From assembly GCA_011605725.1 (NCBI GenBank), contig JAAOZP010000018.1, positions 1-33,555 of the forward strand: a DNA stretch of 33,555 nucleotides, given 5' to 3'. The notes below the pieces were generated by a model. The model did no database searches and was not told the DNA's origin. It saw only the letters and a list, made by a program, of their open reading frames with translations. Source of the DNA: Nitrososphaerota archaeon (GTDB lineage: Archaea; Thermoproteota; EX4484-205; JAAOZP01). A program made the translations under genes and the position numbers. Positions 1,298 to 17,088 of this stretch are shown here, in pieces. Numbering within the stretch: position 1 is the stretch's first letter; each line of letters begins with the position of its first letter.

Positions 1298-3073
1298 CTA
1301 GGCGAGTCCCAGTCTTTCAAGCGTTCTTCTCGTTGGGCGTCCTTCACTATCCCATCCTCTAGCTCTGTAATACTCGTCCAGCATCTGTTCTAGCTCTACA
1401 ACCTGCCCCTTAGTCGGCCCCATGGTCAAGGGCTCGCTCAGAAGCCTCCTTGGAAGAGTATCGTCTTTCCTGCCGAAACCTTCTCTAATGTTGAAAAGTC
1501 TCTCTAGGTTCCATATTCTCTCGCCCACAAGCATGAGGTCCTCAGCAGCATACTTTACCCCAGTTGCTGCCGAAAGCATTCTAGAGTAATACTCTTCGTC
1601 AAGCCCGTATCCGGTGAACCTGCAAGCTACAAGCGTATCCATGGCTGCGTAGAGGTTCTGCTGGTATATAACTAGGCCTGCCTTGTTAACTGTTGAAAAC
1701 CTGTCTATCCTCTTCGGAACCCCCAGTATTTCCAGGGCTATCATGTAGGACCTCAGGTGGCAGCCTCCTCTGTTGCTTGTAGCATACGCTAACCCTTGTC
1801 CTTTAGCTCCACGCGGGTCGTAAGCGGGCAACTCCAAGCCTTTAACCTGCATAGCTGCATCAGGATCCCCGTATTTCTCAGAGAGCCTACGCGACCCTTC
1901 TGCAAGATCGTTCCCGAAACCCTTCCTGTAAGCTGTTTTCTCAATCAGCTCAATCATCTTATCACCATCACCCCATTTTACTTTCTCAGGCGTCAAACCT
2001 TTCTCACTAAGCTCCATCGCGCAGGCTATTGTTACGCCTGTTGAAATAGTGTCCAGCCCAAGATCGTTGCATAAATGGTTCGCCCTCCAGATCGTCTCCA
2101 GATCCCAAAGCAGGCAGCATGAGCCAAGCGCATACACAGTCTCATACTCAGGTCCCTCGCCTCTAACACTGTCTAGACGAGTGTCCCTGCCACACGCGAT
2201 CCTGCATCCGAAGCACGCCTTAGGCTTAACCAGCAGTCTCCTAGTTATCTCCTCGCCAGCAATATTCTTAGCTTCAGGTAGGAAGGTTGCTTGAAAGTTT
2301 TTAGCAGGAAGCACGCCAAGCTCGTTCATAAGGTTTACGAGGACTGCGGTTCCAAACCTGGGTAGGGCTTTACTAGTAATAGGGTTTTGGCCGAAAACCC
2401 TGTTGCATTCTCCAACTACGAAGAGGAAAGTCTCCTTGTCAGCTATTTCAACCGTCTTACTTCCGTTTGCAACGATTGCCTTCAGCCTCTTTGAACCCAT
2501 TACTGCACCCACACCACCTCTCGCAGCAGACCTATAGTAGTCGTTCATTATACCCGCTATCCTCACAAGGTTTTCCCCAGCAGGACCTATGCACGCTACC
2601 CTTGCCTCTTTCCCGAATTTTTCAATCAGCTTGTCCGTGGTTTCAAACACTCTCATGCCCCAGTATTTCTCCCCATCTAAAACCTGTATATCCTTGTCGT
2701 CCATGTATATTATAACTGGGTTTTTAGCCGCTCCCCGGATTACGAGAGTGTCGACGCCACATGCTTTGAACTTGGTTGCGAAAAACCCTCCAGAGTTCGC
2801 GTCGAACACCGTGCCTGTCAACGGGGATTTGGTTGACACTGAAAACCTGCCTGACGTCGGTGCAGCTGTTGCCGTCAGCGGGCCGACTGCGAACACAAGC
2901 ACGTTGTCCTTGCTTAAAGGATCAACCTCTGGGCCCACGTTGTCATATATTATTTTAGTTCCTACTCCTCTTCCACCGATAAACCTGAGCTTCTCATCCT
3001 CGTCCCACTCGCGAAAAGTTATTTTTGAACTAGACAGGTCTACTTCTGCGATGGAGCCCATCCAGCCAGCCAT
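1298..3073 (-). CDS. aor: Aldehyde:ferredoxin oxidoreductase (W/Mo-bis-pterin, AOR family), copy 1
   Basis: 591 aa; KSPLTG, AARGGVGAVMGSKRLK, CFGCRIAC Fe-S motif, EGPEYET, GLDTIS, VKGLELPAYDPR, RGGCH, EYYRARGWD. Confidence 0.95.
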   Translation of the reverse strand: MAGWMGSIAEVDLSSSKITFREWDEDEKLRFIGGRGVGTKIIYDNVGPEVDPLSKDNVLVFAVGPLTATAAPTSGRFSVSTKSPLTGTVFDANSGGFFATKFKACGVDTLVIRGAAKNPVIIYMDDKDIQVLDGEKYWGMRVFETTDKLIEKFGKEARVACIGPAGENLVRIAGIMNDYYRSAARGGVGAVMGSKRLKAIVANGSKTVEIADKETFLFVVGECNRVFGQNPITSKALPRFGTAVLVNLMNELGVLPAKNFQATFLPEAKNIAGEEITRRLLVKPKACFGCRIACGRDTRLDSVRGEGPEYETVYALGSCCLLWDLETIWRANHLCNDLGLDTISTGVTIACAMELSEKGLTPEKVKWGDGDKMIELIEKTAYRKGFGNDLAEGSRRLSEKYGDPDAAMQVKGLELPAYDPRGAKGQGLAYATSNRGGCHLRSYMIALEILGVPKRIDRFSTVNKAGLVIYQQNLYAAMDTLVACRFTGYGLDEEYYSRMLSAATGVKYAAEDLMLVGERIWNLERLFNIREGFGRKDDTLPRRLLSEPLTMGPTKGQVVELEQMLDEYYRARGWDSEGRPTRRTLERLGLA

Positions 3074-3166: not shown

Positions 3167-3409
3167 ATGAGGATTCTGGTTAAGTATTTCGCCTCCTACA
3201 GGGAGGCTGTGGGAAAGAGCGAGGAGGAGCTGGAGCTTACACCCGGCTCAACCATTAAAGAGGTTATTAGAGAAATAGTTTCCAAACATCCTGAAGTCGA
3301 GCTTGATAAGGAGGCGATACTTATTTTAAACCAGAATATAGTCAGGGATAATCCGGAAGTTAGAGACGGCGATGTTCTAGCTGTCTTCCCGCCGCTGGGT
3401 GGCGGATGA
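3167..3409 (+). CDS. moaD: MoaD/ThiS/SAMP ubiquitin-like sulfur carrier
   Basis: 80 aa; VKYFASYRE N-terminus, DGDVLAVFPPLGGG C-terminal di-Gly; divergent from an AOR. Confidence 0.9.
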   Translation: MRILVKYFASYREAVGKSEEELELTPGSTIKEVIREIVSKHPEVELDKEAILILNQNIVRDNPEVRDGDVLAVFPPLGGG

Positions 3410-4347: not shown

Positions 4348-5379
4348 TTGAAGCCTGTTGACCGTGTGTTCACTACGCTTAATCATGAGGAGCCTGACAT
4401 GGTTCCTTGCCTCTGGGCTGTGGCAGACGGTCTCAGACGGCTTCAAGAAGCTTTTAGAAACAGGGAGCTGCCTCAAGACCTTGTTGGAGTCGGGAGTCTT
4501 CCGGAGACTAGGGTTGTGGAACAATGTTCTGAATACAGGCTTTTAGAATCGGTTTTCGGAGACGTGCACCGTATCTCTTATAAAGTGGATTACGGTTACA
4601 GGGAGTTGGTTAAGCCAGCTGTCTCTAAACCAGAGGATCTTGATAGGCTTGAAGAGTTGAAGCTCGAGTTATCCAGGGAACATGTTAAGAGGATTAGGGA
4701 GAATGTTGAGAGAAACAGCGACCGCTTCACCTTCATAAGTCACGAGAGTCCTTTCGGCTTCGCGGCATACTCTTTAAGGGGTTTCAAACGGTTTCTTACA
4801 GACATGGTCGTGAACCCGGGTTTCGCCAAAAAGATTCTCAGCTTCGGAGTTAAGAGGCTCATGGAAATGTCGAGGCAAATAATAGAGGAAACTGGTGTTA
4901 ACGCTGTCTGGGTTTCAGGCGACTTGGGGGATAGTAACGGCCCATTCGTGTCGCCGAGGCTCTACAGTGAAATTCTTGAACCTTTTGACCGTGAGCTTTG
5001 CAGGACATACCATAGGCTGGGAGCCTACGTTTTCCTCCATAGCCATGGTAACTTAAACCTCATTCTCGACAGGATTGTGAACGCAGGGTTCGACGGCTTA
5101 AATCCTTTGGATGAGGCTGAAAACATGGTTCTCGCTTCTGTGAAAGAAAGATACGGGGGCAAGGTGACTCTGATACCTCAACCATCCACTTATAAATTGG
5201 AAAAGATGCCTAGAAACCTGATAGAGGAATATGTTGCAAGCCAGCTTCACGCCGGGGCTCATGATGGTGGGTTCATTTATTACGGTGTCATCGTTAACAT
5301 GCTTCTTGAAAATGCTGACGAGTATGTAAAGGCGTTTTTAAAATTGAGGAGTTACCCGTTGCAGTGTTGCAGGCGTTAG
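4348..5379 (+). CDS. Uroporphyrinogen decarboxylase/MtaA-like superfamily protein
   Basis: N-terminal 'RVFTTLNHEEPDMVP', RGFKRFLTDM, GDLGDSNGPFVSP, FLHSHGNL, GFDGLNPL; lacks the HemE RQAGR motif. Confidence 0.8.
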   Translation: MKPVDRVFTTLNHEEPDMVPCLWAVADGLRRLQEAFRNRELPQDLVGVGSLPETRVVEQCSEYRLLESVFGDVHRISYKVDYGYRELVKPAVSKPEDLDRLEELKLELSREHVKRIRENVERNSDRFTFISHESPFGFAAYSLRGFKRFLTDMVVNPGFAKKILSFGVKRLMEMSRQIIEETGVNAVWVSGDLGDSNGPFVSPRLYSEILEPFDRELCRTYHRLGAYVFLHSHGNLNLILDRIVNAGFDGLNPLDEAENMVLASVKERYGGKVTLIPQPSTYKLEKMPRNLIEEYVASQLHAGAHDGGFIYYGVIVNMLLENADEYVKAFLKLRSYPLQCCRR

Positions 5380-5498
5380 CCGTATGCGCATTATGCTTAC
5401 TGATCAAAAGCCCAGCCTTAGCCTGCCTTAAAATCTTTAAGCATTTTTCAAAGCAAAAGGCTTAAAAGATTATTGAGGCTTTTTAAAACGACGTCTTC

Positions 5499-6077
5499 AT
5501 GAGCATGGTTGAGAAAAAGATAGTTTACTTCAACACGCCTGGGAGAAACAATACCGAGACTGTGCTAGCTTTAGCGAGGAGAAGGGCTGAAGAGCTCGGC
5601 ATAAGAAGCATTGTCGTCGCATCTACAACCGGGGAAACTGGTGTTAAGGCTTCCCAGATGTTTAAAGGCTTCAACCTGGTTGTTGTAACTCATCATACTG
5701 GTTTCAAAGAACCTGGTAAACAGGAGTTAACGGAGGAGAACCGCAGGATAATAGAGGCGAACGGGGCGAAGGTTTACACTGGGACTCATGTCTTCATGAA
5801 TGTTGAAAGGGCGATAAGAAGCAAGTTTGACACGGCCTATCCTGCTGAGATAATGGCTCAGACGTTAAGGCTTTTCTGCGAGGGCATGAAGGTGGCTGTC
5901 GAGATCGTAGCCATGGCTGCGGACGCTGGTCTAATACCTGTAGACAGGGATGTGGTGAGCATAGCTGGAACAGGTAGAGGCGCCGACACCGCTATTATTG
6001 TCCAGCCCGCTAACTCTTCTAGAATATTCGATATGGTTATTAAAGAGATTATTGCTAAGCCTCTGAGCAGAGTATGA
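5499..6077 (+). CDS. MTH1675/COG1751-family protein (pyruvate kinase C-terminal alpha/beta-like domain)
   Basis: IVYFNTPGRNNT, IVVASTTGETG, VTHHTGF, EGMKVAVEIVAMAADAG, GTGRGADTA. Confidence 0.88.
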   Translation: MSMVEKKIVYFNTPGRNNTETVLALARRRAEELGIRSIVVASTTGETGVKASQMFKGFNLVVVTHHTGFKEPGKQELTEENRRIIEANGAKVYTGTHVFMNVERAIRSKFDTAYPAEIMAQTLRLFCEGMKVAVEIVAMAADAGLIPVDRDVVSIAGTGRGADTAIIVQPANSSRIFDMVIKEIIAKPLSRV

Positions 6078-6141
6078 AGGGTAGATGGACAGATGTTTGA
6101 ACTGACACTTATGGTGAGTAGGCGTATGGAGGCGTAGCGTC

Positions 6142-6915
6142 TTGTTTGCCCAAATAGGGAAAGGACTTAGGTTAAGCAGGATTTTCTCTGGAGACGGGAA
6201 AACACTGATCATAAGTCTGGATGCTGCTTTCACGAGAGGACATGTTGAAAACGTGTTGGAAACGCGAAGCGTATTGACTAGTGTTTTAAAGTCTAATCCT
6301 GACGCTGTCCTACTTACCAGGGGCCAGGTTGTTAGGCTTGAAAGTCTTATTGGAGGCAGGGGACCCTCCATCATCTTAAGATCCGACTTCACGAATATTG
6401 TGGGGGGTTATACAGTATTGCCGCGTAAAAAACTCGAACACGTTAAGCTAGCTAGCCCTAGGGAGGCGTTGACCCTGGGTGTTGAAGGCGTTGCTGCTTA
6501 TCTTCTCGTGGGAGACGAGGATGCGGAGGCTGGAAGTATTAGAATTGTTTCAACACTTGTCTCTGGCTGCAGAAGACTCGGGCTTCCACTGCTCGTGGAG
6601 TCGATGGCAATAGGTGAACGGGTCACTCGGGCTAACCGTTTAGACTGTTTAAAGCTTGCTGTCAGGATGGCTGTTGAAGCGGGTGCCGATATAGTTGCAG
6701 CACCGTATGTTGGGGACGAGAAGTCCATGCGCGCAATCGTTGAAGTGGCTGGTGAAACCCCGGTTGTTGCTGTTGACGACCCCGAGATCCCCCTCTCGAA
6801 GCTTAGGGGTGCTCTATCGTCAGGATGCACCGGTCTCCTCTTAAGGGAAAGACTTGCCTCGGGCGGCGTGGAGGAAACCGTTGCGGAGGCCAGGCTTCTT
6901 GTCCACGGGTGTTAA
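6142..6915 (+). CDS. DhnA/class IA aldolase-like protein, predicted catalytically inactive
   Basis: Collinear paralog of the next gene, with GADIVAAPY in place of GADxxKxPY and DAA in place of DHG. GGAGG RBS at 6128-6132 precedes the TTG start. Confidence 0.8.
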   Translation: MFAQIGKGLRLSRIFSGDGKTLIISLDAAFTRGHVENVLETRSVLTSVLKSNPDAVLLTRGQVVRLESLIGGRGPSIILRSDFTNIVGGYTVLPRKKLEHVKLASPREALTLGVEGVAAYLLVGDEDAEAGSIRIVSTLVSGCRRLGLPLLVESMAIGERVTRANRLDCLKLAVRMAVEAGADIVAAPYVGDEKSMRAIVEVAGETPVVAVDDPEIPLSKLRGALSSGCTGLLLRERLASGGVEETVAEARLLVHGC

Positions 6916-6917
6916 GG

Positions 6918-8153
6918 ATGCGGACTGGAAAGAAGCTTAGGCTGAAAAGAATATTCGGCGGAGACGGGAGAGCTGTGGTTGTTGCTGCTGACCATGGGCT
7001 CATGCTTGGGCCGATAAGGGGAGTTGTCAACCTGAGGGAAACACTGACCAGGGTTATTCAAGGCGGTCCAGACGCTATTCTTCTAACCCCTGGGCAAGCA
7101 TCTAGCCTGATTGATCTTTTCTACGGGAGGGATGCGCCGGCACTTCTAGTTAGGGCTGATTGGACGAACGCTTTTAGGGATAAGACGTATACTCTTCCAG
7201 CCAGAGTTGTACGCGACGTGAACACGGTGAGAGTCGAGGATGCTTCAGCCTTAGGTGCCTCCGGAATAGTAGTGTATCTTTTCATGGGTTTAGGCGATGA
7301 GGATGAGGAGGCTAGAAACATTGAAACAGTATCAAGGTTTTCACGCGAATGCGAGAAACAAGGAATGCCCCTTATTGTCGAGCCTCTCCCAATGGGTGAA
7401 CGGGTGACGAAGGCAAACTATGTTGACCTGGTTGCTCTTTCAGTAAGGATTGCTGCAGAGCTTGGTGCAGATGCGCTTAAAGTCCCGTACACTGGCGACC
7501 CATACACTTTTGAAAAGATTGTAAAGGCTACTGACGGAATACCTGTGTTAGCCTTAGGCGGATACAGTGGAGTCACTGTGAGAGACTCGCTGGAGGTTGT
7601 TGAGGAGGTGATGCAGGCAGGTGGTTCCGGAATCGTCTACGGAAGGAATATAGTGCAGGCCCAGGATCCTGGAGAGATGGTGAGGCTCGTCAAGGCTGTG
7701 GTGCATGAGGGTAGAAGCGTCTTGGAAGTAGTGGGAGCCTCTAAGAAGGGGAGGATTTCCCTTACTGTGGATCCGGCTGCCTGCGTAGGCTGCAACCTGT
7801 GTGCCGCTGTCTGCAGCCTCTACCATGATGGAAAAATAAATATTGGGCGTGCGAGGCTCAGGATTATCCAGGAATGGCCGAGTGGAGCCAAACCGGTCAT
7901 ATGTGTTCAATGCGGAAAATGCATATCCGTCTGTCCAGCTGGAGCCTTAAAATGGGGCTTAAAGGGTAATGTTGAGCTTGTGGACGGCCTCTGCACGTCA
8001 TGCATGGCTTGCGTGGAAACCTGTCCTCAGAAGGTAATTAGGTTCGACGAGGAGAGGAGCGTTCCTCTTGTTTGCGACCTTTGCGGCGGAGTTCCACAGT
8101 GTTCAGAATGGTGTGGCACAGCAGCCATAAGGGTTGTTGAAAAAGGTGTTTGA
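6918..8153 (+). CDS. DhnA/class IA aldolase fused to a C-terminal 4x[4Fe-4S] ferredoxin domain
   Basis: Likely start is ATG 6918, 2 nt after the upstream stop (track start 6825 overlaps that gene). Motifs ADHG, GADALKVPY, LGG, YGRN, then 16 Cys in four groups from ~7780 to 8115. Confidence 0.88.
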   Translation: MRTGKKLRLKRIFGGDGRAVVVAADHGLMLGPIRGVVNLRETLTRVIQGGPDAILLTPGQASSLIDLFYGRDAPALLVRADWTNAFRDKTYTLPARVVRDVNTVRVEDASALGASGIVVYLFMGLGDEDEEARNIETVSRFSRECEKQGMPLIVEPLPMGERVTKANYVDLVALSVRIAAELGADALKVPYTGDPYTFEKIVKATDGIPVLALGGYSGVTVRDSLEVVEEVMQAGGSGIVYGRNIVQAQDPGEMVRLVKAVVHEGRSVLEVVGASKKGRISLTVDPAACVGCNLCAAVCSLYHDGKINIGRARLRIIQEWPSGAKPVICVQCGKCISVCPAGALKWGLKGNVELVDGLCTSCMACVETCPQKVIRFDEERSVPLVCDLCGGVPQCSEWCGTAAIRVVEKGV

Positions 8154-8154
8154 A

Positions 8155-9954
8155 ATGAAGGGTGGCTATGCAGGCAGGGTTCTAAGCTTCGACCTCTCCT
8201 CAAACAAGCCTAGGGTTGAGAATCTTGATGAGAAAGAGGCTTTCCTCCTACTTGGTGGAAAAGGTCTTGGAGCCCTCCATCTCTACAGGAGCCTAAGGGG
8301 CAAGGAGGATCCGTTTTCTCCTGAAAACCCAATCATAGTTTCGACCGGCCCGTTGACTGGAACAATTGCTCCAACAGGCACTAAGTTCAGCGTCGTGACT
8401 AAAAGCCCTCAGACCGGTGTTTTTCTAGATTCAAACTGCGGCGGAATGTTCGGGGTGCAGCTTAAGAGAGCCGGCTACGACATGCTTATCGTCAAAGGAG
8501 CCGCTGAAGAGCCTTCTATGCTAATAGTTGATGAAAATGGTGCTGAGCTTAGGCCTTGCAAACAATGGGGTAGGACTACGTTTGAAACCATCAGGGAGCT
8601 TAAGAAAGAGTTTCCAGACTACAGCTTTCTTATAGTTGGGCCAGCTGGTGAAAGGCTTGCTCCAATAGCGGGGCTGTTGACGGATGACGCGAGGTCCGCT
8701 GGCCGCGGAGGCTCCGGGGCAGTAATGGGCTCTAAAAGGCTGAAGGCAATCGTGGCAGGTGGCGGGAGACCAATAGAGGTTTATGATGTCGAAGGGATGA
8801 AAAGGGCCGCCTGGGTTGTTAGAAGGATGCTTAGGCTGCACGAGGTTACTGCGAGAAGCCTTCCTAGACATGGGACGGTGAACATAATAGAGGCTGTTAA
8901 CGAGATGGGTGCTCTTCCCACGAGAAACTTTCAGAAAGGAAGGTTTGAAGATGCAAGCGAGCTTTCAGGCGAAAAATGGAGGTCAAGCCTTTGGAAGACC
9001 GATAAGGGCTGCTATGGCTGCACTATAAGATGTGGAAAAATCGCTGTCTTGAACGACACGTGGGTAGACGGACCGGACTACGAGACCATATGGGCATTCG
9101 GCCCCAATTGTGGAGTCAAGGATGCTAGGGCGATAGCCATGGCTAACTATTTTTGCGACGCCTACGGCTTAGACACGATAAGCACGGGCGTAACCATAAG
9201 CTTCCTAATGGAACTCTATGAGAAAGGGTTCATCCAGGACCTGGACGGGTTAAAGCCTACTTGGGGGGACGACGAGGTCTTTCTCAGACTCGTGGAGAAG
9301 GCTTGCAAGGGCGAGGGTTGTGGAAGAATGATTGAGCAGGGTGTAGCTAGGGTAAGTAGAAAGTTCCCTGGCAGCGAGAGCTTCGCGATGCATGTTAAGG
9401 GGCTGGAGATGCCTGCTTACGAGCCTAGGGCTGCTAAAGGAATGGGTCTTGGCTACGCAACTAGTGACCGGGGAGCATGCCATCTTAGAGGATACACTGC
9501 TGGTCAGGAGCTGCTTGGATATGGTGGAGGTGTAGACCCGTACACTGTCGAGGGCAAGGCTAAGCTAGTAATGGATAGGCAGGATGAGAAGGCTGTGATA
9601 GACTCTTCAGGCCTATGCTTCTTCGCGTTCTACGCTATAACGCTTAAAGAGCTTCACCGCATGGTTGTTGCCTGCACTGGACAGCCATATAAAGACTGGT
9701 ATGAATTCATGAGGATAGGGGAAAGAATCTATAATCTGACGAGGCTTTTCAACGTGAGAGAAGGATTGACGAGGAAGGATGACACTCTGCCCGGCAGATT
9801 CTTAAACGAGCCCATGGCGGAAGGACCTGCGAAGGGGCAGGTGGTTGAGCTTGAACAAATGCTCTCCGAATACTATAGGCTTAGAGGCTGGAACGAGAAT
9901 GGTGAACCTATGAAGGAGACTATTGAAAGACTGGAGTTAAGCGAGCTACTGTGA
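8155..9954 (+). CDS. aor: Aldehyde:ferredoxin oxidoreductase (AOR family), copy 2
   Basis: ATG 8155 is 1 nt after the upstream stop, with AGGTG RBS at 8144-8148. Motifs KSPQTG, AGRGGSGAVMGSKRLK, CYGCTIRC, DGPDYET, GLDTIS, RGACH, EYYRLRGWN. Confidence 0.95.
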   Translation: MKGGYAGRVLSFDLSSNKPRVENLDEKEAFLLLGGKGLGALHLYRSLRGKEDPFSPENPIIVSTGPLTGTIAPTGTKFSVVTKSPQTGVFLDSNCGGMFGVQLKRAGYDMLIVKGAAEEPSMLIVDENGAELRPCKQWGRTTFETIRELKKEFPDYSFLIVGPAGERLAPIAGLLTDDARSAGRGGSGAVMGSKRLKAIVAGGGRPIEVYDVEGMKRAAWVVRRMLRLHEVTARSLPRHGTVNIIEAVNEMGALPTRNFQKGRFEDASELSGEKWRSSLWKTDKGCYGCTIRCGKIAVLNDTWVDGPDYETIWAFGPNCGVKDARAIAMANYFCDAYGLDTISTGVTISFLMELYEKGFIQDLDGLKPTWGDDEVFLRLVEKACKGEGCGRMIEQGVARVSRKFPGSESFAMHVKGLEMPAYEPRAAKGMGLGYATSDRGACHLRGYTAGQELLGYGGGVDPYTVEGKAKLVMDRQDEKAVIDSSGLCFFAFYAITLKELHRMVVACTGQPYKDWYEFMRIGERIYNLTRLFNVREGLTRKDDTLPGRFLNEPMAEGPAKGQVVELEQMLSEYYRLRGWNENGEPMKETIERLELSELL

Positions 9955-9987
9955 AAGTAAGACTCGTATTTGCTGGGAATGTTTAGC

Positions 9988-10005
9988 TTTTTTTAGCGCG
10001 CGCTA
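9988..10005 (+). terminator. T-tract (possible archaeal terminator) abutting palindrome TAGCGCGCGCTA
   Basis: Run of 7 T ~35 nt after the aor2 stop, in a convergent gap. Confidence 0.35.
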
Positions 10006-10037
10006 TACTGTTTAGAACTGTATTTCCTAATGATCCA

Positions 10038-11012
10038 CTAATCAAGTTTTTTAACAGCTTTAATCATTGTCTTAACGTTTTCTATCGGAGTTTTCGGATG
10101 TAGGGCGCAGGCAGGAGCCACTATTCTAATACCGTAGTTTAAGCATGAGAGCGAGGCTTCAGCAATACTCTTCCCGCTGCTTTCCAGGAGTAGAAACGTG
10201 CTTACCCCTCCGGCTAACGTTACGCCGCGAGCCAGGTCTACTGCAACACCTAGGTTGGTTTTAGGATCTATGTGGAAGACTTTAACGCCTGTCCTAGGTA
10301 TGTCGCTCAGGATCTTTAAAGTGTTTCCACAGATGTGAAGTATGCATGGAGCGTCCACCATGGATGTTAAACGTCTAAGAGGATCTACTTCAACCATTCT
10401 GAAGATTGTTGGGTTAAGCACGTCGGGTGATGAAGCCATGTCCTCGATCACAATAGCATCCGCGCCGGCTGAAACCATTTCTTCAGCGTAATTCGCTAAT
10501 GATACTGAAAGCCTGTCAGCGTAATTCCTTACGACACTCGGGTTCCTCCTGACCAGTAACATTGTTTTAGCGGGGCCAAGTAGATAGTTGATAAGGGTGA
10601 AAGGTCCTGCCACACCACCAAGTATAGGAAAATCCTGTCCCACTGCCTTCCTCAAATCTCTTATGGCGTCCAAAACCATCATTGTTCTGCCTTTCCCTAA
10701 AAAGTCGGGTTCGCCTATTCCCTCCACCAGCCTTCTCGGCTTCGGATAATAGCCTTCGAAATCGAGTTCAACGCCGAGAGCCTCGGCTTCAACACACTGG
10801 TCGAAAGGAACTCGAACTGTCTCAAAGCCTATTGCTGATTTAGCAGCTAGAGCTGCTTTAACCATGTGCTCCCGGCTTCTATGGGCTGAGGACCATGTGA
10901 ATCCGCACAGGCCGAGTAATTCTTCTGTCAAAGGGCTTGTTATCGCTGCCACTATGGGTTTCTCCGTGTCTTCACCTTGCGCGAGAGAGAGGAAGATGCT
11001 CCTCAGGTTCAA
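10038..11012 (-). CDS. MtaA/CmuA-family methylcobamide methyltransferase (MT2-like)
   Basis: VRVPFDQCVEAEALG, GPFTL, Zn-ligand HICG and C-terminal APAC (His-x-Cys...Cys), TPIENV. Confidence 0.85.
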   Translation of the reverse strand: MNLRSIFLSLAQGEDTEKPIVAAITSPLTEELLGLCGFTWSSAHRSREHMVKAALAAKSAIGFETVRVPFDQCVEAEALGVELDFEGYYPKPRRLVEGIGEPDFLGKGRTMMVLDAIRDLRKAVGQDFPILGGVAGPFTLINYLLGPAKTMLLVRRNPSVVRNYADRLSVSLANYAEEMVSAGADAIVIEDMASSPDVLNPTIFRMVEVDPLRRLTSMVDAPCILHICGNTLKILSDIPRTGVKVFHIDPKTNLGVAVDLARGVTLAGGVSTFLLLESSGKSIAEASLSCLNYGIRIVAPACALHPKTPIENVKTMIKAVKKLD

Positions 11013-11029: not shown

Positions 11030-11785
11030 AGTTGGCTCAGCTATTATTCTTTTATGATGGTTTTCATGGGGCTACAGGTTGCAACATCCTTCGTCTCCTC
11101 CAGGGTTGCAGAGTTTCTTACTCCTCTCCCAGTTTCAAGCAGGGATGTATCCAAAATCCTCCTCGCGTGCTTCGTAAGGATTTTCGACATCCCGTTGATA
11201 GCGGCGCTCTTAATCGTCCCCTTAGCCTACGGGGTTTCATACTGCTCTATCCCGGGTTCTTTAACAGTTCTTCTGGGCGTTGTGATTACAGAGGTTTTCG
11301 CGTTGACAATAGCTGTTTTCCTAGCGCTCTCATTCTACTCTAAAGTGGTTAGGGGAGGCGGAGGGTCGGCGTGGAGGATGCTCATGAGGCTCTTCTACAT
11401 GTTGATCTGGGTTATCCCGATGTTTCTCATGTACATGGTTACGAGTTTCGCAATACAGATGGTTAGCCTGATGAAAGCCCTTACTCAAGCCTCTCATACC
11501 TGCTTATATTGCTGTATCCGTTTTCGCTCGGATTCCTTGCTTCACTAACCACTTTCCTCAACATCGATAACCCTAGGATAGTAGCCTTATCAGTAGGCTC
11601 CTTCCTCATCTATTTAGCGTTAGCCGCCTATTCTTTTAAATGGCTTATCAGAGAGGTTGTTGGAATAGGCTTTGAAAGCCTCGCCGCAGCCACTAGGACA
11701 GAGGTCAAAGAGGTTTCCATAAATCCTGGACCACCATGGCTCGGAATCGTTAAAAAGGATCTTAGAATGGCTTCAGCGCGCGCGC
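11030..11785 (+). pseudogene. Fragment of an archaeal multi-pass membrane protein (ABC-exporter permease-like) with two frameshifts
   Basis: Hydrophobic reading switches frame near 11050 (LAQLLFF/MMVFMGLQ) and near 11487 (LTQ/SLSYLLILLYPFSLG). It ends at GIVKKDLRMAS in a (GC)5 tract. Confidence 0.6.
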
Positions 11786-11876
11786 TAAAACTGTGGATAG
11801 ATGTTGAAAAGCTTCCATTCCCATATCTGAACATTACCACTGAGCTGATCAATTTAGGCATGGGTTTAACTCCTAA

Positions 11877-12602
11877 GTCGCGTTTACAGGCCTCGTAATA
11901 AGCGAGTTGGGGGGAGGCTACTTTTTCGGACTTTGCTCACTCCTCTACTTCGCCTCGCTCACCATAGTTCACCTCGGCTTAAGGGTTAAAGGCCATGCTT
12001 CGAATACGAGGAAGAGGATCGGAGGCGGTTCCGCGAGCCCCATCTCCAGGCTGGGAACCCCTTTTCTAGCGTTTCTCTCCGGAAGCATGCTCTTCTTCAT
12101 GGCTGATTTCACGAAGAACGTGTATGTGCCGATGTTCTACGCGTTTGAGCTGGGGCTCGGCATGGTGACAGCCACGCTGTTGCTGAGTCTCGCCAGCTGG
12201 CTAGAAATACCGCTTAACGTGTTTTTCGGCCACCTTTCGGATAGGCTTGGGCGTAAGACAATAGTGCTGGTCGCCTACGTGTTGTGCGCAACATACATGT
12301 TTGCCAACTCCACGGCCAGTGGCTTTGAAGGGGCTCTGCTCGCCATGGTGCTCTACAGCTTCGTCTGGGGGGCTTTCTCCGGGGCTAGTTCAGCATTTGC
12401 CTCCGAGCTTGTCGACCAGGATAAAAAGGGTTTTGCCATGGGCCTGTTCAACTCTTCCCGGAACATAGCGAGCATGCTCACCCCGATGTCGATCGGCCTG
12501 CTTAGCCAGGCCTACGGGTATAGGTTGACTTTCAGCACTATGGGTGTTTTAATGCTTATAGCGTGCCTCATCATCGTCATCGGGATAAGAAGGAAAGCTT
12601 AA
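11877..12602 (+). pseudogene. N-terminally truncated MFS transporter
   Basis: Frame opens only after TAA at 11874. Contains the C-terminal-half MFS motif GHLSDRLGRK and KKGFAMGLFN; ~240 aa versus ~400 for a full MFS. Confidence 0.7.
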
Positions 12603-15500: not shown

Positions 15501-15669
15501 TTTTAACCGTTTTTAGAGAGAAGTTAAAGAATATTAGTCTTTTCCTCGTGAACCGTCCCCTCTCTCCGTTCGGATGAAAAGTCCGGAGCCTTCTAATTCT
15601 TCTTCAAACAGTGTAAAGCATTTAAGGATGAGACTGGTTGAAATACTGAGACTGACGGGGGCCGTTGAG

Positions 15670-17088
15670 ATGGGTGAAAAAGAGCAGCTTTACCAGGAAA
15701 GGTTAAAACGCTATTTAACCGCTATGCGTAATGAAAAACCTGATCGCATCCCGATTCGCCCTTTCGTCGCCGAGTTTACTGCGAAGTATGCCGGCTATAC
15801 GTGTCAGGAGGTGACGCATGACTACAGGAAGGCTTTTGAAGCAGTGTTGAAATGCGCCAGGGATTTCGACTGGGATGCGATGGTCGCCAACATGGTATAC
15901 GTCTGGACAGGTTTAACACAGGCCTTGGGCTTGAAGTACTATGCTACACCCGGCGTAGACATTCCTCCCAACACGGCGTTCCAATATCTTGAGCCTCCTG
16001 AGGAGAAAGCTTTTATGAAGCCGGATGAGTATAACTTACTGATTGACGACCCGACGGCTTTCCTGTACAACGTCTGGCTGCCACGCGTCTCAAGCGAAGT
16101 AAGTGTGGAAGCATCAGGCTCCCAGTATAGAAGCAGGCTTGCGCTAGTAAAGGGAGCCATGGCGATGAGTGAATACTTTAACGCGTTTGGACACCAAGTG
16201 GAGAGAATGCGAAGGGAGGCTGGAACCGTATCCGCTATAGCAGGTATTCTCAAAGCCCCTCTCGATATTATTGCTGATAAGCTGCGCGGCTATGTCGGCT
16301 TAGCTAAGGATCTGCACCGGCAACCTGAAAAAGTGCTTGAAGCCTGTGAAGCACTTGCTCCACACTTGACAGAGGTCGCACGAATGACCGCCGACCCTGA
16401 GAAGAAAGTGCCAATAGGCTTCTGGATGCATCGCACCTCTATACCATTCATCAGCATGAACCATTTTAAAAACATTCACTGGCGCACTCTGAAGCCTATC
16501 ATAGAGGAGCTCTGGGCTCATGGATATCGAGTTCTTTTCTACGCTGAAGGAGACTGGACGCCGCACCTAGACAGTTTTGCTGAACTTCCCGAGGGCAGCA
16601 TAGTCTTCCACATAGATAGAAGCGACTTCTCTGAAACGCATAGGAAGCTGGGCCGTAGGTTCTGTTTAAGCGGAGGCCTGCCGAACTGGCTGCTTACCAT
16701 CGGGACGCCTGACGAGGTTTGCCGCTACTGTAAGAAGATCATTGACACCATTGCTTCAGACGGGGGATACATTATGGATGCGTCAGCAATTATTCAGAAC
16801 GATGCCAAGGTGGAAAACGTGAAGGCGATGACTGATTTTACACGCAACTATGGTAAGTATGAACGGGGCTCGGAGGGTTTGGAGCATTCTAGTCAGGAAA
16901 CAGTTGCTAATAGGCCGAAAGCCATTTTGAAAAAGCCGGGTGTGAAACCTGGTTCCTGCATTCCTTGGGATGAGAAACGTAGAGAGATTCTAGGGATCTC
17001 TGGGGATGAGGGTCTGTTAAAAAGGATCTGGGAGGAGATCGATTCACTCGGATACTTATTCATCTGGCAGGTGTTACTGTCTTTCTAA
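15670..17088 (+). CDS. URO-D/MetE-like superfamily protein, long type (possible corrinoid-dependent MT1-like methyltransferase)
   Basis: ERLKRYLTAMRNEKPDRIP, LRGYVGL, FYAEGDW, LSGGLP, GTPDEV, DGGYIMD, ENVKAM plus ~75 aa C-terminal extension. ATG 15670 is preferred over 15574. Confidence 0.78.
   Translation: MGEKEQLYQERLKRYLTAMRNEKPDRIPIRPFVAEFTAKYAGYTCQEVTHDYRKAFEAVLKCARDFDWDAMVANMVYVWTGLTQALGLKYYATPGVDIPPNTAFQYLEPPEEKAFMKPDEYNLLIDDPTAFLYNVWLPRVSSEVSVEASGSQYRSRLALVKGAMAMSEYFNAFGHQVERMRREAGTVSAIAGILKAPLDIIADKLRGYVGLAKDLHRQPEKVLEACEALAPHLTEVARMTADPEKKVPIGFWMHRTSIPFISMNHFKNIHWRTLKPIIEELWAHGYRVLFYAEGDWTPHLDSFAELPEGSIVFHIDRSDFSETHRKLGRRFCLSGGLPNWLLTIGTPDEVCRYCKKIIDTIASDGGYIMDASAIIQNDAKVENVKAMTDFTRNYGKYERGSEGLEHSSQETVANRPKAILKKPGVKPGSCIPWDEKRREILGISGDEGLLKRIWEEIDSLGYLFIWQVLLSF

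Follow-up and report, generated by a model that had tools for sequence, protein, structure and literature searches.

A candidate module of a pseudo-aldolase, an aldolase-ferredoxin fusion and an aldehyde ferredoxin oxidoreductase conserved in archaea and bacteria

We analyzed contig JAAOZP010000018.1 of assembly GCA_011605725.1, a 33,555-nucleotide stretch referred to here as the window. It comes from a 93% complete genome (G000) of a Nitrososphaerota archaeon, whose genus also includes a metagenome-assembled genome deposited as Candidatus Brockarchaeota (G007 = L025). The window encodes a conserved unit of three genes, A-B-C (Table 1). Gene A codes for a pseudo-aldolase, gene B (6918-8153) for an aldolase-ferredoxin fusion and gene C for an aldehyde ferredoxin oxidoreductase (AOR). 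On balance, we think that the three products form a complex that would cleave a ketose 1-phosphate and oxidize the resulting 2-hydroxyaldehyde. The parts of this model differ in weight. A physical complex of A, B and C appears very likely, and C probably oxidizes the product of B. We are inclined to believe that this product is a neutral hydroxyaldehyde. A sealed tunnel, rather than proximity of the active sites, seems unlikely to us.

The initial annotation of this locus had named a lack of conserved gene order elsewhere as grounds for rejecting the proposed system. We performed a synteny search in GTDB genomes and found that the order is conserved. Among the best 80 of 154 matches, only loci with room for the neighboring gene were scored (75 for C and 76 for A); the genomes are related rather than independent, and the counts are given without a statistic. 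C follows B in 75 of 75 loci, and A precedes B in 73 of 76. Two of the exceptions are Asgard loci in which A lies after C, and the third contains an assembly N-gap. The archaeal carriers among the 80 loci are Brockarchaeota, Bathyarchaeia, Thermoprotei, Hadarchaeota and Asgard archaea, and the bacterial carriers are Chloroflexota (33 loci), Bacteroidota, Ignavibacteriota, KSB1, Aminicenantes and Planctomycetota. A reciprocal test started from the oxidoreductase. AORs were drawn from metagenomes by AOR alignment and placed in a tree, and those with upstream DNA present were considered assessable. B lies upstream of 9 of 9 assessable AORs inside the C clade (43 rows, SH support 0.975) and of 0 of 68 outside it. 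The tie between this AOR clade and the aldolase-ferredoxin fusion was recovered in both search directions.

Of the 120 best homologue clusters of B, 119 contain both of its domains. Because of this near-universal fusion and the conservation of gene order across two domains of life, we conclude that the fusion is not due to chance. A more modest interpretation is that B provides a WorSL enzyme of general detoxifying function with its small subunit and that its aldolase works independently. Close unfused aldolases without an AOR do exist (L106, L108 and L109), and one Logan contig (L104:46-2659) carries a module with the aldolase and ferredoxin as separate overlapping open reading frames (ORFs), which reflects either a real split or an assembly error. 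This interpretation does not readily account for the near-fixed linker length (26 aa from barrel to first Cys in 68 of 80 homologues), the exclusivity of the AOR clade and the invariant residues particular to it, or the retention across two domains of life, and we give it little credence.

The gene for B is currently annotated as a fructose 1,6-bisphosphate (FBP) aldolase or a 4Fe-4S protein. Its N-terminal domain has the features of DhnA-type class I aldolases, namely a TIM barrel, a Schiff-base Lys, and the Asp-His-Gly and Gly-Arg motifs. Each aldolase residue listed in Table 1 is invariant in 82 of 82 B copies. Compared with the FBP aldolase of T. tenax, B has Glu (E155) in place of Trp144, Leu (L157) in place of Tyr146 and Met (M159) in place of Arg148. 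We take these columns to be the acid/base and distal-phosphate positions, with Arg148 presumably binding the distal phosphate of FBP. B lacks the Tyr146/Arg148 motif of archaeal class I FBP aldolases and scores 160 bits against a cut-off of 430 for the corresponding model (NF040816).

The nearest relative of the aldolase domain by both sequence and fold is MJ0400, a 2-amino-3,7-dideoxy-D-threo-hept-6-ulosonate (ADH) synthase. This relationship raises the possibility of an anabolic direction, in which C would supply an aldehyde by reducing an acid and B would condense it, as in the transaldol chemistry of ADH synthase. MJ0400 is the closest solved relative of B, and AORs can reduce acids when given low-potential donors (PMC12096430). 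However, B falls below the cut-offs of both ADH synthase models (204 of 241 bits and 170 of 299 bits), the true orthologue is encoded on contig C19 with dehydroquinate (DHQ) synthase II, and the neighbors of the module are catabolic (glycosidases, isomerases and kinases). We consider the anabolic direction very improbable.

Among the best PDB matches of the C-terminal Cys domain are small subunits from WOR5, AorABC (AorA) and WorABCSL (WorS). This WorS/AorA type agrees with the comparison to AorA and the WOR5 small subunit made in the initial annotation. All 16 Cys are retained in 78-80 of 80 B homologues. They also have the WorS-motif His (H303 in 80 of 80) and Arg (R313 in 75 of 80). The model of B ends in a strand; the tail that follows the last Cys is 12 residues long in this protein and mostly 8-23 in homologues. 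In characterized systems, a C-terminal helix on the small subunit is the element required for nanowires (PMC12318220).

C contains AFOR_N and AFOR_C domains, the four cluster Cys, and the second-shell Thr, Glu, Tyr and His that define aldehyde-oxidizing AORs (PMC12096430). Its best PDB match is 1aor at 505 bits, compared with 218 bits to WOR5. The Fe ligands of the PfAOR dimer, Glu332 and His383, are replaced by M329 and L377, and neither ligand is among the common residues at these columns in 66 C members. C scores 56 bits against the GAPOR model (NF040818), whose cut-off is 1300. The C clade has its own set of near-invariant residues (R224, R227, N243, W280, G458, K498 and D/E478). Position 478 is acidic in 63 of 66 members and presumably lines the substrate pocket. 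Tungsten is assumed to be the metal of C by analogy with the family.

A is a DeoC/DhnA-like protein with 40% identity to B. Its model shows an intact barrel (pLDDT 90). The Schiff-base Lys is present in 0 of 77 A copies, and little is left of the Asp-His-Gly, Gly-Gly and Gly-Arg motifs beyond degenerate forms, which bears out the earlier view of A as a dead aldolase. In a quick tree, A, B and a few unfused relatives share one starred group of 48 rows, indicating that A arose within the family of B. Open frames of 614-687 aa over A in two genomes were not borne out; in G020 the ORF containing A spans 275 aa, and in G018 it runs off the contig end.

Structure prediction of the A-B pair gave an ipSAE of 0.61, compared with 0.00 for the best control. 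Contact agreement among runs was at least 94% and partner pLDDT at least 83. In calibration, the mark that A-B passed admitted 58 of the 80 complexes with solved structures and 2 of the 110 mismatched pairs; it is only rough for predictions made with our own alignments. The predicted interface places A helices 123-145, 160-181 and 201-206 against B residues 25-111, and the invariant A residues G124, E179 and G181 fall inside it. We read this interface as a possible counterpart of the ring face of DhnA pentamers, and a mixed aldolase ring is plausible. Mirror-distance correlations among A, B and C (0.79-0.94) were put down to shared ancestry and not counted as co-evolution.

We propose that A, B and C would act as one complex in which active B and dead A build a mixed DhnA-type ring. 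The WorS-type ferredoxin domain of each B would dock an AOR large subunit as in WorSL and AorAB, a contact suggested by homology and strict gene linkage. B would split the ketose 1-phosphate of an accessory sugar or polyol into dihydroxyacetone phosphate (DHAP) and a neutral 2-hydroxyaldehyde such as lactaldehyde, glyceraldehyde or glycolaldehyde. By oxidizing this aldehyde to a 2-hydroxy acid, C would pull the unfavorable aldol cleavage and clear a reactive compound, and the four clusters would relay the electrons to ferredoxin. The acid could then be racemized by LarA, oxidized by GlcDF-like enzymes, phosphorylated or exported. We favor a ketose 1-phosphate substrate because B has no distal-phosphate Arg, C is of the broad-range AOR type and enzymes of 2-hydroxy acid metabolism are encoded nearby. 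Neighbors in 82 loci include LarA (18, from three lineages), ketose 3-epimerase-like (16), TauE (13), FGGY kinase (12), PfkB (11), XylA-like (11), GlcD-like (11), GlcF-like (9) and DUF4432 (8) genes. Arabinose and fucose isomerases and galactosidases also occur beside the module, and the window itself contains GH2, GH38, epimerase, Gfo/Idh oxidoreductase and UroD/MtaA-like genes. LarA scores above or near the cut-off in 8 of 9 module-bearing genomes, and the miss is a 70% complete genome. This genome encodes a glycerate kinase, and lactate racemases act on glycerate too (PMC11770544).

Several observations weigh against this model. The neighbors are variable, and many of the counts come from related Anaerolineae. 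LarA in this genus may be tied to a nearby pair of a second AOR (AOR1) and a class II aldolase. For the neighboring FGGY kinases, the best-scoring models are xylulokinase- or gluconokinase-like, and such kinases are not known to make ketose 1-phosphates. Because homo-oligomers of the DhnA family have already been solved (2qjg and 1ojx), the A-B prediction may reflect likeness to, or memory of, those structures rather than specific binding. The mean conservation of the A interface (0.53) is barely above the A average (0.49). At one locus (L109), a Lys-less A adjoins an unfused aldolase, and neither a ferredoxin nor an AOR is encoded within 6 kb. No cultured carrier appears among the GTDB loci listed or in 10 clusters. 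WtpA and TupA were not found in this 93% complete genome. Finally, the invariant R224 and R227 of C could bind an anionic aldehyde.

The L109 locus (5183-10110) led us to reject the idea that A is restricted to AOR fusions, and we conclude that A is a partner of the aldolase lineage and not simply a spacer for the AOR. The pseudo-aldolase and the unfused active aldolase adjoin a fucose-isomerase/GH63-like fusion of 1097 aa at this locus. Two other unfused relatives of B have no A nearby. Among the 26 genomes examined for WtpA, only 1 has it, and none of the same-genus sample does (15 genomes besides G000). G000 has four AOR-family genes and yet no detected WtpA or TupA for tungstate or molybdate uptake.

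An anionic aldehyde would fit a glycolytic shortcut, in which B would act as an FBP aldolase and C as a new, GOR-like glyceraldehyde 3-phosphate (GAP):ferredoxin oxidoreductase that captures heat-labile GAP or another phospho-aldehyde. CbGOR is a known WorSL GAP oxidoreductase (PMC13328260). In this genome we found no GAPOR above the cut-off, no archaeal GAPDH, no FBP aldolase/phosphatase and no canonical class I FBP aldolase, and its other DhnA aldolase is the ADH synthase. The canonical class I FBP aldolase was likewise not found in module-bearing members of the genus. On the other hand, a class II ketose-bisphosphate aldolase is present in 7 of 7 module-bearing genus members, and another genome (G023) has both the module and the canonical class I enzyme. 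These results indicate that B is not needed for FBP. Two full-length aldehyde dehydrogenases are candidates for the GAPN step, B lacks Arg148, C is nearest to broad-range AORs, the distribution of the module is patchy and its neighbors are accessory sugar genes. The shortcut is improbable in our judgment, and we retain it because of the clade-invariant R224 and R227. The class II and canonical class I aldolases were never found together in a genome of the genus. In G000 the class II aldolase gene is divergent from the glycerate kinase gene (C3:71069-72927).

An anionic substrate could also come from anaerobic sulfoglycolysis or sugar-acid breakdown. B would then cleave a sulfo- or carboxy-ketose 1-phosphate to DHAP and sulfolactaldehyde or tartronate semialdehyde, C would oxidize the aldehyde and TauE would export the product. 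TauE directly follows C in 11 of the 13 loci where it is near the module; PfkB kinases, fucose-isomerase-family genes and IolN/IolO-like genes occur nearby, and C has the basic clade residues. Against this, TauE was seen in Chloroflexota-type loci only, the known sulfo-aldolases show only 15-21% identity in fold matches, position 478 of C is acidic in nearly all members, and the LarA and GlcDF-like neighbors suggest a simple 2-hydroxy acid. We assign this variant a small chance. Sulfo-sugar substrates and reverse operation had both been considered in the initial annotation; they are possible, though less favored by the neighbors than catabolic cleavage to a neutral hydroxyaldehyde. A conserved Anaerolineae cluster (L085, L088, L090, L092, L093 and L112) combines PfkB, XylA-like, GlcD/GlcF-like, IolO-like, UPF0261, creatininase/IolN-like and LarA genes with the module and TauE. 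It is the best target for substrate identification.

The system was originally described as four genes. That description stands for A, B and C and is not supported for the first gene, a PK_C-only protein that we take to be MTH1675-like. This gene adjoins the module in only 4 of 66 loci, every one in this genus. Another genome of the Brockarchaeota order may have it across a contig break, and homologues in other module-bearing genomes sit on different contigs. To judge from gene order, it would be a local passenger or accessory rather than a core component. The layout at this locus is otherwise as described: four co-oriented ORFs of 192 aa (ATG start), 257 aa (TTG), 411 aa (ATG) and 599 aa (ATG), separated by gaps of 64, 2 and 1 nt. 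Internal ribosome-binding sites are present as well, with GGAGG 9 nt upstream of the TTG at 6142 and weaker GGTG motifs before 6918 and 8155. We located the closing T-tract (Table 1). A sigma-70/hairpin scan, of a type unsuited to an archaeon, gave no hairpin terminator there, and the sequence 3' of C varies among relatives. The four genes probably form one transcript here, since the promoter-like motif in front of the first gene is kept in four relatives.

Table 1. Features of the module and its flanks in the window
Feature	Position	Strand	Details
BRE/TATA-like archaeal promoter motif 5' of first gene	5453-5471	+	candidate promoter; core GCAAAAGGCTTAAAAGATT identical in four same-genus relatives
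PK_C-only protein	5499-6077	+	PF02887; probably co-transcribed, outside the conserved module
A, pseudo-aldolase	6142-6915	+	intact TIM barrel, Ala186 replaces the Schiff-base Lys; predicted ring partner of B
B N-terminal domain, class I DhnA-type aldolase	6918-7742	+	D25, H26, E155, K188, G214-G215, G242-R243
B C-terminal domain, WorS/AorA-type four-cluster ferredoxin	7743-8153	+	16 Cys, invariant H303, without C-terminal nanowire helix
C, AOR/WOR large subunit	8155-9954	+	C286, C289, C293, C488, T241, E310, Y422, H443 kept
T7 tract	9988-9994	+	7 T; candidate archaeal terminator

AOR1 lies at 1298-3073 (-) in the window with a MoaD/WorX gene at 3167-3409 (+); it is 44% identical to C and falls outside the C clade. 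In relatives (L024, L025, L027 and L028), AOR1 is followed in the same orientation by genes for a class II (FucA-like) aldolase and LarA, in that order, which makes a second, unfused aldolase-AOR pairing. The class II aldolase and LarA of this pairing are found at the end of contig C16 in the present assembly (G000 C16:56034-57919). An ORF containing short repeats lies at the start of the contig (1-529) and likely caused the C16/C14 contig break. Three UroD/MtaA-like genes (4348-5379, 10038-11012 and 15574-17088) lie among the sugar genes, and we guess that they could possibly serve in O-demethylation of methylated sugars. The stretches 11054-11898 and 11907-12602 hold short portions of a gene for a 12TM_1 membrane protein, which has 452-562 aa in relatives, together with a half-size major facilitator superfamily (MFS) gene; these are probably decayed genes.

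Each part of the module belongs to a known family. A literature search, with most subscription journals outside its reach, found no description of the fusion or the module, and the initial annotation knew of none either. Aldolases are absent from the main text of two 2025 papers on tungsten-containing oxidoreductases (WORs) and of a 2026 classification of five WOR classes, and the covered portion of that classification's neighborhood supplement lists no DeoC, although a member may be listed elsewhere in it (PMC13328260). A physiological role has been defined for members of only five among the 92 WOR clades (PMC13328260). In the present case the aldehyde source is indicated by the fused aldolase, which makes the function of an entire AOR clade testable with three genes and standard assays. 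If our model is correct, the module would represent an architecture that none of the five WOR classes includes. It would also be a case of a class I aldolase whose pseudoenzyme subunit is conserved, for which the literature search gave no precedent, and it would fill a gap in sugar fermentation in Brockarchaeota, Bathyarchaeia, Anaerolineae, KSB1 and others. More tentatively, and with some doubt, we suggest an undescribed WOR class in which an active/dead aldolase ring scaffolds AORs through the fused WorS and passes the aldehyde made from a sugar straight on to the metal site, defining a ferredoxin-reducing route for ketose 1-phosphates common to uncultured archaea and bacteria.

We compared the module to known systems. 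Class II WORs (PfASOR/WOR5, PDB 6x6u and 6x1o; CbGOR) likewise combine a large subunit with a four-cluster small subunit encoded directly upstream, and, as in that class, no flavoprotein partner is seen in the module. The module departs from the two-subunit definition of the class in that WorS is fused to an aldolase; in addition, a pseudo-aldolase is co-encoded and C is closer to the clade 87 AORs. B resembles the archaeal DhnA aldolases (MJ0400, 2qjg; T. tenax, 1ojx; and LsrF) in its fold, with a TM score of about 0.89 relative to the target, and shares their Schiff-base Lys, Asp-His-Gly motif and Gly-Arg phosphate site. Unlike those enzymes, B has Glu155 instead of Tyr146 as the likely acid/base and no Arg148, carries a C-terminal ferredoxin, is accompanied by a conserved dead paralogue and scores under every curated cut-off. 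Clade 87 AORs (PfAOR 1aor; Aromatoleum AorABC 8c0z; Acetomicrobium WorABCSL 9mqx) are the closest solved large subunits, and they share with the module all four second-shell residues in C and the WorS motif in B. The module differs from them in lacking the Glu332/His383 dimer site, the nanowire helix and AorC/WorABC. None of the four described clade 87 types has an aldolase (PMC12318220).

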